Sequence record: OR844768
Length of the DNA: 46,941 bases
From: Escherichia phage ECO111 5-P
Direction: 5' to 3' (one strand)
Shown here: positions 41,344 through 42,229 of the stretch, one piece after another
How positions within the stretch are numbered: position 1 is the first letter of the stretch
Layout of the letters: every line of letters begins with the position of its first letter
Position numbers and translations under genes: made by a program
The notes under the pieces: generated by a model
Databases searched by the model: none
What the model saw: the letters and a program-made list of their open reading frames with translations, nothing else
Told to the model about the DNA's origin: nothing

Positions 41344-41372
41344 AGAAGCCCCGCTATTGCGGGGTTAGCTTT
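41344..41372. terminator. bidirectional terminator (aagccccgc-tatt-gcggggtt)
   Basis: Between convergent tape measure and GIY-YIG-like genes. Confidence 0.65.
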
Positions 41373-42229
41373 TCTATCTCCAGTATCAACCTTGGTGTTT
41401 TTATTACCCATTCCGTACACCCATCAAACCCATAAAATCCAGCTCTCTGGAATTCATTGTGAAATCTTGATTCTATGCTTGCGGCAGTCATGCCATTTGT
41501 TTTTATTATCTTGATGATATCGAATTGAAATGGCGTATCTCTGGTTAATTTCCTTATCCTCTCTGCTTTATTATGAGTTACACCAATCTTTACCGCCCCA
41601 GCTGATACGGAAACAAGAAAGTAAACATATGCCGTTTTGTTTGTCCTCTTAAACCCATAATCAGCGCATTCAGGGCATCCCTTTCCAGACATATGATCGG
41701 AAGTGAATTGCAAAAATTCCCCATGCTTACGGCATATTATTTTAACCTTAACTCTAGAATTGATGAATGAATCAGCATCATATTGATAAGCGAACGAGTG
41801 AACTATATTTGATTTTCTCACAAAAATATCAAACGTTAACCTCCTGTTCTTGCTGCATGATGGACATCCCGCCCCTGCCATATGATGACTTCTTCTTTGA
41901 GTGAATACTCCGTGTTCTCTGCATATTATCTTGATATTTTCTGAAGATACCTCACCTTCAACCAGGGAATAATCATATTTACATTCATGAATTTCATTAA
42001 ACCTCTCAATCAGGGAGTGCAGTTTGATTTTTCTTGATTCACGCCCACACAACCTGCACCCTCCAACTAAATGAGCGTCAGGCCTTTGTCTAAAATCCCC
42101 ATGCTCCCTGCAAATTATTGTTAATTTTGTTTTAGCGTCAAAATAAACAGATTTTGAGTAATCATATTTGTCACCGTGCGTGAGCCTTGCACGACGAATG
42201 AATTCTTCAGTAGTTAATCGCTTACTCAT
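41354..42229 (-). CDS. homing-endonuclease-like protein: three tandem Cys-containing repeats plus C-terminal GIY-YIG/T5orf172-like domain
   Basis: Threefold repeat ~EFI..A...HG.KYDYS...K..IICREHG.F.Q...H..G.GCP.C; C-terminus AYVYFLVS...VKIGVTHNKAERIRKL...TEWV. Confidence 0.5.
   Translation of the reverse strand: MSKRLTTEEFIRRARLTHGDKYDYSKSVYFDAKTKLTIICREHGDFRQRPDAHLVGGCRLCGRESRKIKLHSLIERFNEIHECKYDYSLVEGEVSSENIKIICREHGVFTQRRSHHMAGAGCPSCSKNRRLTFDIFVRKSNIVHSFAYQYDADSFINSRVKVKIICRKHGEFLQFTSDHMSGKGCPECADYGFKRTNKTAYVYFLVSVSAGAVKIGVTHNKAERIRKLTRDTPFQFDIIKIIKTNGMTAASIESRFHNEFQRAGFYGFDGCTEWVIKTPRLILEIEKLTPQ

Follow-up and report, generated by a model that had tools for sequence, protein, structure and literature searches.

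Homing endonuclease genes (HEGs) of the T5orf172 class that carry repeated DUF723, DUF4379 or CapR zinc-finger modules and lie near essential genes have been described by Barth, Dunham & Seed in 2023 (PMC10448857), so that the gene type, including its repeated zinc modules, is already known. According to the same authors, homing is so far undemonstrated for any T5orf172 HEG. The T5orf172 nuclease Odn (Gp88 of ICP1) cuts double-stranded DNA in vitro and requires a glutamate that aligns with the catalytic glutamate of I-TevI (PMC8263062), and the PLE satellite repressor CapR binds DNA through its zinc domain (PMC8096241).

We analyzed a 46,941-nucleotide stretch of DNA from Escherichia phage ECO111 5-P (OR844768), referred to here as the window. 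On its minus strand, an ATG-initiated ORF of 291 codons occupies positions 41354..42229, in agreement with a reading made earlier from the letters alone (the sequence-only reading). Domain and homologue searches assign this ORF to the T5orf172 class of HEGs, and the region very probably represents a free-standing HEG cassette of this branch of the GIY-YIG nuclease superfamily. The Seg endonucleases of phage T4 are free-standing intergenic insertions with co-conversion of their flanks, which is the arrangement that we propose here. The locus resembles the HEGs of ICP1 and other phages described by Barth et al. (PMC10448857) in its C-terminal nuclease and N-terminal “beads on a string” zinc array, in its free-standing position beside essential genes, among them the tape measure gene, and in its isolate-variable presence with frameshifted copies and variants in module number. 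It differs from them in belonging to enterobacterial siphophages of the Skatevirus, Swiduovirus, and Saltrevirus type, in its insertion site, and in a promoter-plus-leader unit that does not appear in the consulted passages of that description.

Zinc modules and nuclease domain

A homologue search with the 291-residue protein returned >7,700 relatives, and the protein matches PHROG 681 (“endonuclease”) with an E value of 8e-65. No paralogue was detected within the window by tBLASTn, and a sequence search of the PDB found no relative, the best hit being a chance match (E 0.26). The protein gave only marginal matches in PADLOC (candidate system PDC-S57, 18 bits) and was therefore not counted as a member of a defence system.

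The protein contains three tandem repeats, whose pairwise Smith–Waterman scores of 101–121 compare with 22–23 ± 4 for shuffled sequences (z 19–23; reached by 0 of 1000 shuffles). This bears out the internal triplication noted in the sequence-only reading, with a period of 63–64 residues (aa 1–65, 66–129, and 130–193) instead of the ∼75 given there; at the DNA level, the repeats lie 189 nt apart. BLASTP of the protein against itself showed the diagonal only and did not pick up the repeats, and Smith–Waterman alignment with shuffles was used instead. The motif that had been noted at the repeat ends is present as I(I)CR(E/K)HG.F.Q....H..G.GC..C, but module 1 ends in GGCRLC and not in the expected GCP.C.

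Each repeat corresponds to one module on the minus strand: module 1 (aa 1–65; 42035..42229) with ligands C40, H43, C58, and C61, module 2 (aa 66–129; 41843..42034) with ligands C103, H106, C122, and C125, and module 3 (aa 130–193; 41651..41842) with ligands C166, H169, C185, and C188. When 28 homologues with identities as low as 34% are aligned, all 12 ligands (CxxH...CxxC, four per module) prove invariant. The Pfam model DUF723 matches module 3 only (27.2 bits, cut-off 20.9), DUF4379 stays below its cut-off (23.3 versus 24.5 bits), and the zinc-ribbon matches in NCBIfam are all sub-threshold. Other alleles found at the same junction exceed the DUF4379 cut-off and match the CapR model weakly, below its cut-off. 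Judging from the repeats, the alignment, and the Pfam match, the N-terminal region is a row of three predicted CxxH...CxxC zinc modules of the DUF723/DUF4379 type. They share with CapR a small treble-clef-like architecture with two ligand pairs ∼15–25 residues apart (PMC8096241), whereas CapR shows the pattern CxxC...CxC and is a repressor, not a homing nuclease.

The C-terminal domain (aa 194–291; 41357..41650, minus strand) contains the segment YVYFL...KIGVT...R...TEWV that had been singled out as typical of T5orf172/GIY-YIG nucleases. HMM searches confirm this assignment, as both MUG113 (PF13455; aa 213–284, 37.0 bits versus a cut-off of 22.3) and T5orf172 (PF10544; aa 201–263, 29.5 bits versus a cut-off of 20) match above their thresholds. 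Seven residues of the domain are invariant in the homologue alignment (Tyr-203, Lys-214, Gly-216, Arg-224, Glu-253, Gly-270, and Glu-273). The AlphaFold2 model of the protein has a mean pLDDT of 84 and arranges the C-terminal domain as β-β-α-β-α; in this model, the domain is of the GIY-YIG fold and carries the invariant tyrosine, arginine, and glutamate of the family.

The first motif of the fold is present as Y-V-Y, with Tyr-203 invariant, and the second reads K-I-G, not Y-I-G, so that the second tyrosine is replaced. Within the GIY-YIG superfamily, deviations from the usual core residues are on record (PMC8263062). Arg-224 and Glu-273 are 49 residues apart, compared with 48 for Arg-27 and Glu-75 in I-TevI. 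By this spacing and the order of the motifs, and not by superposition, Arg-224 and Glu-273 are probably equivalent to Arg-27 and Glu-75 of I-TevI, and the glutamate to Glu-180 of Odn.

The protein resembles I-TevI in that a catalytic domain of the GIY-YIG fold is tethered to a separate DNA-binding region with a zinc finger (I-TevI: PMC8096241). The DNA-binding parts differ, with three CxxH...CxxC modules in the window protein versus a zinc finger, a minor-groove helix, and a helix-turn-helix in I-TevI. The order of the domains is reversed, the nuclease domain being N-terminal in I-TevI and C-terminal in the window protein. Seg and I-TevI possess Y-I-G in place of K-I-G, and similarity to them is detectable at the level of the Pfam clan or the fold only. 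Odn has the T5orf172 domain in common with the window protein (PMC8263062), but its DNA-binding part is a satellite-derived RepA_N domain and it serves as an anti-satellite weapon, whereas the window protein combines zinc modules with HEG-type population signatures.

The tape measure junction in related phages

The HEG lies between the gene for the tape measure protein (TMP; 38963..41341, plus strand; phrog_1538, E 4.5e-201) and the distal tail genes (phrog_384, phrog_396, NlpC/P60, and phrog_469), as the sequence-only reading had placed it. The first of these tail genes encodes 157 residues and occupies the position of lambda gene M (42366..42839, plus strand; phrog_384). The HEG had also been called the only minus-strand gene in the tail operon, which is wrong: an Imm_superinfect gene (37948–38154; 66.9 bits, cut-off 27.9) and a phrog_444 gene (37455–37811), both located between the major tail gene and the tape-measure region, as well as two tRNA genes (35757–35926) are also on the minus strand. 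This error and the one in the repeat length are minor and leave the interpretation as a mobile endonuclease unaffected.

Comparison with empty sites delimits the inserted cassette to 1,024 bp (41342..42365), from the TMP stop codon to the ATG of the next tail gene. The empty site of HC6 and IME207 reads ...GAATAATGGCT..., with overlapping TAA and ATG, and the same TAATG junction, in which the TMP stop codon overlaps the next ATG, is found in 6947, HC8A, Bas81, and ST1UNAM. At this locus, the gene is missing from HC6, 6947, HC8A, Bas81, and ST1UNAM, and further phages carry other cargo. The cassette has a GC content of 37–40% versus 47–54% in its flanks.

Its position inside the tail module could suggest that the gene encodes a conserved tail or virion component, or that the ORF is present by chance, in either case without any link to mobility. 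We give these readings practically no credence, since the nuclease and zinc-finger domains score above the Pfam cut-offs, homologues number in the thousands, and the gene is AT-rich and runs on the strand opposite to the tail genes. A structural role is refuted by the empty sites of close relatives, which do without the gene and in which the tail genes abut directly.

Relatives differ in what they carry at the TMP/tail junction: some have nothing there, and others have one of four alleles of the HEG family, a frameshifted copy, or a gene of unrelated type. The four alleles share 40–53% amino acid identity, and one of them has four zinc modules. The frameshifted copy, in VLCpiS13a, is annotated as two ORFs, and SeSz-2 retains a 335-bp remnant. 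In KFS-SE2, Vi II-E1, and others, the alternative occupant is a KilA-N-like gene; searches of the window and of five related genomes turned up no copy of it. We rejected the label “amidase” that this occupant carries (PHROG 6095), as it shows no Pfam amidase domain and only a sub-threshold KilA-N match. The HEG family uses a second site at the portal/head-morphogenesis junction, where the annotated span of the VLCpiS13c copy is just 354 bp. Phages from China, Mexico, and Switzerland, at least five in addition to the one studied here, encode intact 291-residue orthologues of the window protein. Depending on the isolate, this one point of the tail operon is vacant or occupied by any of the four divergent alleles, by a decayed copy, or by cargo of another kind, and the junction provides a clean and well-sampled natural example of the class.

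Identity tract and proposed homing

The HEG is 96–100% identical to its counterparts in LPST10, PHA46_2, and Bas80, whereas the flanks and backbones of these phages are 85–92% identical to the window. A tract of 95–100% identity that the window shares with LPST10 and PHA46_2 (41100..42538) extends ∼250 bp to the left and ∼175 bp to the right of the cassette; toward its right edge, there are zero mismatches at 42313–42538, followed by 88% identity. Compared with the empty-site phage HC6, the flanks of the cassette are 62–70% identical, and regions farther out are ∼90% identical. The N-terminal haplotype of the first distal tail gene differs between occupied-site and empty-site phages. The TMP of LPST10 comprises 1,097 residues versus 792 in the window, with no alignment over 39001–40500; an isrG match inside the LPST10 TMP gene (31 bits, gathering score 100) was disregarded. 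The closest relatives of the structural module are phages without this allele, with either an empty site or another occupant. The high-identity tract looks similar to a co-conversion tract, but ordinary recombination could have produced it instead of endonuclease-driven conversion.

The precise intergenic insertion, the empty sites, the turnover of alleles, and an identity of the HEG above that of the backbone support the view of the sequence-only reading that the gene is a free-standing mobile endonuclease. In the mechanism that we propose, co-infection with a cassette-less relative would allow the zinc modules to recognize a target close to where the TMP gene meets the tail gene in the genome of this relative, and the tethered nuclease domain would then cut this genome. 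Repair by recombination, with the HEG-positive genome as template, would transfer the cassette and a few hundred bases of its flanks. The carrier itself may escape cleavage, as its junction is interrupted by the cassette and its flanks are of a diverged haplotype. In phages employed for the biocontrol of Salmonella and E. coli, such a cassette would account for the local mosaic structure of the tape measure and tail-tip genes. Phages with and without the HEG are in culture (for example, Bas80 versus Bas81, and LPST10 versus HC6), which makes it practical here to test a T5orf172 HEG for homing in crosses and to map its target.

The intact orthologues in at least five other phages and the conservation of all catalytic and zinc positions are also consistent with a domesticated, HEG-derived gene that has ceased to home and is retained for a benefit to the phage. 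Such a gene could exclude co-infecting relatives or satellites, like Odn of ICP1, or regulate the neighboring tail genes, like CapR or I-TevI in its autorepression. Domestication is documented for the same family in Odn (PMC8263062) and CapR (PMC8096241), and the window HEG adjoins a promoter-like element for the tail genes. We nevertheless consider domestication unlikely. The gene is missing from close relatives that are themselves viable phages, the PADLOC matches are marginal, and the turnover at the site (alleles, frameshifted copy, and remnant) speaks for a selfish element and against cargo of benefit to the phage. A nuclease that excludes competitors could also home, and the two explanations overlap in part.

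Signs of invasion and decay are found within the family, namely the two-ORF copy of VLCpiS13a, the SeSz-2 remnant, the four divergent alleles, and the exchange H169Y in the LPST10 copy, which alters a zinc ligand. Orthologues differ by 8–9 synonymous and 8–10 non-synonymous codon changes, and these similar numbers suggest relaxed constraint. Together with the short portal-site copy of VLCpiS13c, the codon changes, the VLCpiS13a copy, and H169Y could indicate that the window gene, although its ORF looks intact, is the relic of an earlier invasion and neither cuts nor moves. This seems quite improbable, as the window copy is full length and keeps all positions that are invariant in the 28 homologues, along with the promoter-like element, the leader, and the Shine-Dalgarno site, and as the near-identity of the HEG over diverged backbones argues for recent spread. 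We therefore prefer a mobile HEG cassette.

Putative expression elements and the structured leader

Judged from its sequence elements, the cassette looks self-sufficient and built in such a way that the tail operon is not disabled. Its putative parts are a hairpin terminator used in common with the TMP gene, and an extended –10 element of its own, a leader, and a Shine-Dalgarno site for the HEG. An outward-directed extended –10 promoter and a new Shine-Dalgarno site would restore expression of the downstream tail genes.

The hairpin (41347..41366) is GC-rich, overlaps the stop codon of the HEG, and scores as terminator-like on both strands in a terminator scan, as expected from the bidirectional terminator that had been proposed. 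It would end transcription of the TMP gene on the plus strand and of the HEG on the minus strand. Its stem (GCCCC/GGGGC) is kept in all occupied sites regardless of the cargo, and the loops vary.

Promoters were assigned by matches to the extended –10 element and by fixed spacing; a two-hexamer promoter scan of the intergenic region returned nothing relevant and called neither of the –10 elements described here. The extended –10 element TGGTACAAT (42317..42325, minus strand), located exactly 7 nt upstream of the first G of the leader, is the probable HEG promoter. A –10-like element occurs at the same 7-nt offset in 12 of 12 related loci (TGGTACAAT, TGGTATAAT, or TGATATAAT; TGGTGCAAT in S13b) and in most instances of the leader in viral contigs. 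Toward the tail genes, the conserved extended –10 element TGCTAAAAT (42332..42340, plus strand) is a candidate restart promoter. All occupied sites, among them the KilA-N-like cassette and the SeSz-2 remnant, retain the sequence CGTGCTAAAATACA, which the empty sites lack. The Shine-Dalgarno sequence of the HEG (GAGGA; 42236..42240, minus strand) lies 6 nt upstream of the ATG and is conserved in all leaders at the TMP site, and the new Shine-Dalgarno sequence of the downstream tail gene (GGAG; 42356..42359, plus strand) replaces the TAATG translational coupling of the empty sites.

The structured 5′ leader (42261..42309, minus strand) resembles int-alpA (RF02996), an orphan motif that stems from Weinberg et al. 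2017 as a candidate sRNA but is not discussed in the main text of that work; a literature search gave nothing related. In the leader, an outer helix (GCAGC/GCUGC) surrounds two hairpins, which makes three helices, and the junction blocks UA(G), GAAAA(G), and CU as well as a 3′ AUC are invariant. The Rfam model scores 28.1 bits on the window leader and 26.6–32.5 bits on eleven other phage leaders, all below the gathering score of 35.8, and aligns over its full length in 12 of 12 enterobacterial HEG leaders. Our own covariance model scores 81.4 bits on the window leader. Covariation is found in both inner hairpins, by pair counting on an anchor-registered, loop-excised alignment and by RNAalifold on the natural sequences. 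Pair counting on the alignment fitted to the covariance model is uninformative because variant hairpins are placed in insert columns, and single-sequence folding of the leader gave a stability no better than that of shuffles (z 0.53).

The leader shares with int-alpA the junction blocks (C/A)UAG, (G)AAAAG, and CCUG as well as the three-helix layout, which is also that of the canonical E. coli copy. It differs in that it has no 3′ U-tail and runs directly into a Shine-Dalgarno site and an ORF. The contexts differ as well: the leader is found in phage structural modules, at the 5′ end of endonuclease genes and 7 nt after a –10 element, whereas the canonical E. coli int-alpA follows an integrase gene in integrative elements and lies upstream of an ORF without domains.

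Leaders and T5orf172 HEGs match one-to-one in six whole genomes. In related phages, the leader precedes endonuclease genes of the T5orf172, HNH_3+AP2, and NUMOD4+HNH_3 types, and in viral contigs every identifiable ORF downstream of it is an endonuclease of one of three architectures. If three unrelated endonuclease families share one structured 5′ element, they are probably under common expression control. The promoter and the three-helix leader may thus form a portable module that controls HEGs at the RNA level (in timing, level, or autoregulation), was acquired repeatedly by unrelated HEG families of enterobacterial and related phages, and represents a divergent branch of int-alpA; for this proposal, we see the balance as even. 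If true, it would give int-alpA its first functional context, in the control of genes in mobile elements, and the leader could matter more than the HEG itself. A conserved folded leader common to unrelated HEGs does not seem to have been described.

The PeSL cassettes of T4-type phages are reportedly portable promoter-plus-structure units that travel with variable genes and mark recombination boundaries. PeSLs are said to flank diverse small ORFs, whereas the leader unit is tied to endonuclease genes in this phage group; the likeness lies in the concept. We also considered the leader as the target of the endonuclease itself and rejected this, because the leader is part of the mobile cassette, does not occur in empty sites, and accompanies nucleases with unrelated DNA-binding domains.

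The promoter-plus-leader unit is absent from the one Vibrio phage homologue that was examined. The association with endonucleases has exceptions: in two viral contigs, the leader precedes a 189-residue ORF without assigned function, and Pseudomonas has copies that stand alone and carry a U-tail.

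The endonuclease gene and its product

The homing endonuclease gene (HEG) is an ATG-initiated minus-strand open reading frame of 291 amino acids (41354..42229), as the sequence-only reading had it, with a Shine-Dalgarno sequence (GAGGA) 6 nt upstream of the ATG. Its placement between tape measure and distal tail genes also holds: the tape measure protein (TMP) gene (38963-41341; phrog_1538, E 4.5e-201) lies on the left, and lambda-like tail-tip genes (phrog_384, phrog_396, NlpC/P60, and, with 828 amino acids, a phrog_469 tail protein) on the right. The bidirectional terminator proposed for this locus corresponds to a GC-rich hairpin over the HEG stop codon (41347-41366), which scored as terminator-like on both strands. 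The window contains only one copy of the gene, and none of 10 other candidate ORFs checked in the window was an HNH endonuclease.

The protein comprises three tandem repeats (residues 1-65, 66-129, and 130-193). Local alignment of the repeats in pairs gives scores of 101-121, whereas shuffled partners give 22-23 ± 4 (z 19-23; reached by none of 1000 shuffles), which upholds the triplication read from the translation. The repeat length of ∼75 residues given there was too long, because the 189-nt spacing at the DNA level confirms a period of 63-64 codons. Each repeat ends in I-I-C-R-E/K-H-G-x-F-x-Q...H..G.G-C-x-x-C; the GCPxC ending ascribed to all three is not found in module 1, which reads GGCRLC.

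The last 98 residues contain the motif YVYFL...KIGVT...R...TEWV as first read, and the anticipated T5orf172-type domain was recovered by Pfam above cut-off at residues 201-284 (MUG113, 37.0 bits, cut-off 22.3; T5orf172, 29.5 bits, cut-off 20), together with DUF723 at residues 162-189 (27.2 bits, cut-off 20.9). The “treble clef” family DUF4379 scored slightly below cut-off. PHROG 681 (“endonuclease”) matches the protein end to end (E 8e-65), and near-identical orthologues in RefSeq are already annotated as “endonuclease”. A search of 5.8 billion proteins returned >7,700 homologues; the Pfam combination is the same in most, and many are longer, with more Zn modules.

Among 28 full-architecture homologues (identity down to 34%), all 12 putative metal ligands are invariant (C40/H43/C58/C61, C103/H106/C122/C125, and C166/H169/C185/C188), as are Y203, K214, G216, R224, E253, G270, and E273 of the nuclease domain. 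The second GIY-YIG motif reads K-I-G, not Y-I-G. Arg-224 and Glu-273 probably form the catalytic pair; they lie 49 residues apart, compared with 48 for Arg-27 and Glu-75 of I-TevI. In an AlphaFold2 model built from the same alignment, the individual domains are predicted with confidence (mean pLDDT 84) and their relative placement is not (pTM 0.39), the pattern that a beads-on-a-string layout would give. No solved structure related in sequence to the protein was found, and a Foldseek search with the whole chain was uninformative. The T5orf172 domain of Odn cuts double-stranded DNA in vitro and needs a conserved glutamate (PMC8263062), and a CapR-type Zn domain binds DNA (PMC8096241).

The HEG is not the sole minus-strand gene of the tail region, as had been claimed. 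The stretch from the major tail gene to the TMP region holds a small minus-strand cluster (37455-38154) made up of a phrog_444 gene (37455-37811) and a gene for superinfection immunity (37948-38154; Pfam Imm_superinfect, 66.9 bits); the cluster resembles a moron island within the tail module. Two adjacent tRNA genes of the structural region, Arg(TCT) at 35757-35832 and Ser(GCT) at 35839-35926, are likewise on the minus strand; in relatives, a single annotated tRNA gene (Met or Ile) occupies the equivalent position.

The TMP/tail-gene junction and its occupants

The phage falls among ∼47-kb enterobacterial siphophages of the genera Skatevirus, Swiduovirus, Shuimuvirus, and Saltrevirus. The absence of the gene from the same locus in related phages, expected of a mobile insertion, is borne out in HC6, IME207, 6947, HC8A, Bas81, and ST1UNAM, where the TMP stop overlaps the start of the next gene (…GAATAATGGCT…). 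In the window, a cassette of exactly 1,024 bp (41342-42365) is inserted precisely between the TMP stop and the next start codon, with a GC content of 37-40% compared with 47-54% in the flanks.

The site is polymorphic, and its occupants turn over. LPST10, BS5, PHA46_2, PSH-1, and Bas80 carry the allele of the window (96-98% amino acid identity), and swi2, VSt472, and 64795_sal3 carry three further alleles of this family (identity 40-53%; four Zn modules in one). VLCpiS13a has a 72% allele annotated as two ORFs (L014 501-1377), SeSz-2 a 335-bp remnant, and in IME207, where the junction is empty, an HNH_3+AP2 endonuclease is found one junction downstream. KFS-SE2, Vi II-E1, Segz_1, KE08/KE12, and others carry an unrelated minus-strand gene of 216 amino acids (2566-3216 in the KFS-SE2 locus, L002). 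Its “amidase” label, which stems from PHROG 6095, looks unreliable; Pfam detected no amidase domain in the protein and only a sub-threshold KilA-N match (21.3 versus 23.8 bits). A second site of the HEG family is the portal/head-morphogenesis junction of Skate, LPST49, VLCpiS13c, LPST10, and PHA46_2. Besides the split annotation in VLCpiS13a, signs of decay are seen in the HEG of LPST10 (L006), where tyrosine replaces the module 3 zinc ligand His-169, and in the portal-site copy of VLCpiS13c, annotated over 354 bp only (L018 1047-1400).

The cassette borders are conserved irrespective of the cargo. In all occupied junctions, a hairpin with a GCCCC/GGGGC stem and variable loops directly follows the TMP stop, and the opposite border reads CGTGCTAAAATACA...GGAG...ATG; the KilA-N-like cassette has both. 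This border combines a plus-strand extended -10-like element (42332-42340) with a new Shine-Dalgarno sequence for the tail gene, in place of the translational coupling seen at empty junctions. Because every occupied junction has these borders, the insertion apparently ends the TMP transcript and restarts expression of the tail gene. In Bas80 (L004 3562-4932), the tail gene that directly follows the HEG encodes 456 instead of the usual 157 amino acids, with a phrog_384 N-terminal part and a ∼320-residue extension matching phrog_11600 and the tail-protein family phrog_5939, pointing to a gene fusion or replacement exactly at the HEG boundary.

Exchange around the cassette and a possible homing route

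The window is strongly mosaic, with a blastn coverage of at most ∼60% by any deposited phage. It is most similar to gmqsjt-1 and Sa179lw in its replication half (1-24000), to swi2, HC6, and IME207, which lack its HEG allele, in its structural half, and to LPST10, BS5, and PHA46_2 in its HEG region. In sliding-window comparisons with whole genomes, the HEG is 96-100% identical to that of LPST10, PHA46_2, and Bas80, compared with 85-92% for the flanking backbone. This excess conservation extends beyond the gene, in a tract from ∼41100 to 42538, after which identity falls to 88%. The tape measure proteins of LPST10 and PHA46_2 have 1,097 residues versus 792 in the window, with no alignment over 39001-40500. 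Identity to the empty-site phage HC6 is 62-70% right beside the insertion and ∼90% farther away, and at the N terminus of the downstream tail protein, ∼55 residues are of one haplotype in the compared T5orf172-HEG phages and of another in empty-site phages. About half of the codon differences between HEG orthologues are synonymous and half non-synonymous.

Upon co-infection, the three Zn modules might dock the HEG protein on the HEG-less junction region, where the GIY-YIG-type domain would cut the HEG-less genome; repair would then copy the cassette and neighboring flank into it. The carrier would be immune because its junction is split and its flanks have diverged. The target more likely lies right of the junction or spans it, since the empty-site phage IME207 has the TMP C terminus of the window but not its downstream-gene haplotype. 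In every respect testable here, the HEG fits the class of Barth, Dunham and Seed (2023). According to PMC10448857, T5orf172 HEGs with repeated Zn modules are clustered near essential genes and mark the boundaries of recombination, and their homing is yet to be demonstrated. The TMP/tail junction offers an unusually clean natural experiment for such a demonstration.

A structured leader ahead of endonuclease genes

An Rfam scan of the intergenic region gave a full-length, sub-threshold match to int-alpA (RF02996) on the HEG strand (42247-42312; 28.1 versus 35.8 bits; E 0.002 for 1.3 kb searched). The corresponding three-helix leader (42261-42309, minus strand) also occurs in the compared loci L004-L006, L008-L012, L014-L019, and L021-L052. 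At either insertion site, each enterobacterial T5orf172 HEG examined has a match of 26.6-32.5 bits directly 5′ of it, with every instance below the Rfam gathering score; none was found 5′ of the KilA-N-like gene, the remnant, or a Vibrio phage homologue. At 12 of 12 loci, an extended -10-like element (TGGTACAAT, TGGTATAAT, or TGATATAAT; TGGTGCAAT at one locus) is followed, always at a distance of 7 nt, by the first G of the leader, so that the HEG mRNA would begin with the leader. The start codon follows after 20-36 nt in endonuclease genes of three unrelated architectures.

Folding of the window leader as a single sequence was no better than shuffles, and a first pair count on a covariance model-fitted alignment was uninformative. 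We registered 16 distinct leaders, which represent few and phylogenetically related variants, on their invariant blocks with loops removed. Of the cells, 97.9% are paired (shuffled, 79.1 ± 1.9%), 36 are changed on both sides (shuffled, 11.2), and the covariation score is 0.502 (shuffled, 0.125; at most 0.095 in slid registers), values that none of 500 shuffles reached. Up to four pair types occur at a single position, and RNAalifold predicts the same three helices from the natural sequences. The covariation supports both inner hairpins, the outer helix being preset by the search pattern.

We trained a covariance model on eight leaders and ran it against 320 kb, which took in five whole genomes and the window. 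Its 15 strong matches (57-82 bits; two outside the training set) are all upstream of T5orf172 HEGs, and HC6, which has no such gene, gave no match. A 16-bit match of the same architecture (LPST10, L006 41613-41667, minus strand) precedes the HNH endonuclease gp73, which adjoins the large terminase gene. This leader has the -10 element, GCAGC, two different hairpins, GCUGCAUC, and the same Shine-Dalgarno region. It is more divergent and lacks the CUAG and GAAAAG blocks, so the family may be wider than the exact search pattern catches. An exact-pattern scan of IMG/VR yielded 34 instances, and the identifiable downstream ORF is a T5orf172 HEG or an HNH_3+AP2 or NUMOD4+HNH_3 endonuclease. As an exception, the motif precedes a 189-residue protein with no assigned function on two viral contigs. 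One bacterial match in 596 Gb scanned, inside a coding region and with no hairpin, equals the number expected by chance. A Pseudomonas fluorescens PS723 contig (L055, L056) holds two copies of the phage-type motif ∼1.9 kb apart, each with a TATAAT-like -10 before it, a U-rich tail after it, and no ORF directly downstream; their layout suggests stand-alone small RNAs and not the leaders of mRNAs.

Such a leader, common to three unrelated families of endonucleases, seems to be undescribed; literature searches for it, or for an association of int-alpA with HEGs, turned up no account. We give even chances to its being a genuine regulatory RNA dedicated to HEGs. By score, U-tail, and context, the phage leader is a divergent relative of int-alpA rather than a member of the family. 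Canonical int-alpA, present in 220 of 5,426 E. coli genomes, follows an integrase gene and has a U-tail. It belongs to elements that also carry AlpA-like and Icd-like genes, and a domain-less ORF begins ∼24 nt after it. For two chromosomal copies (L057 2501-2558 and L058 2501-2557), the following ORFs of 293-317 residues had no Pfam or PHROG match. Each copy is flanked on one side by a tyrosine integrase and on the other by an AlpA-like helix-turn-helix gene, with Icd-like or antirepressor genes adjacent, in satellite- or island-like elements inserted near rph/yicC.
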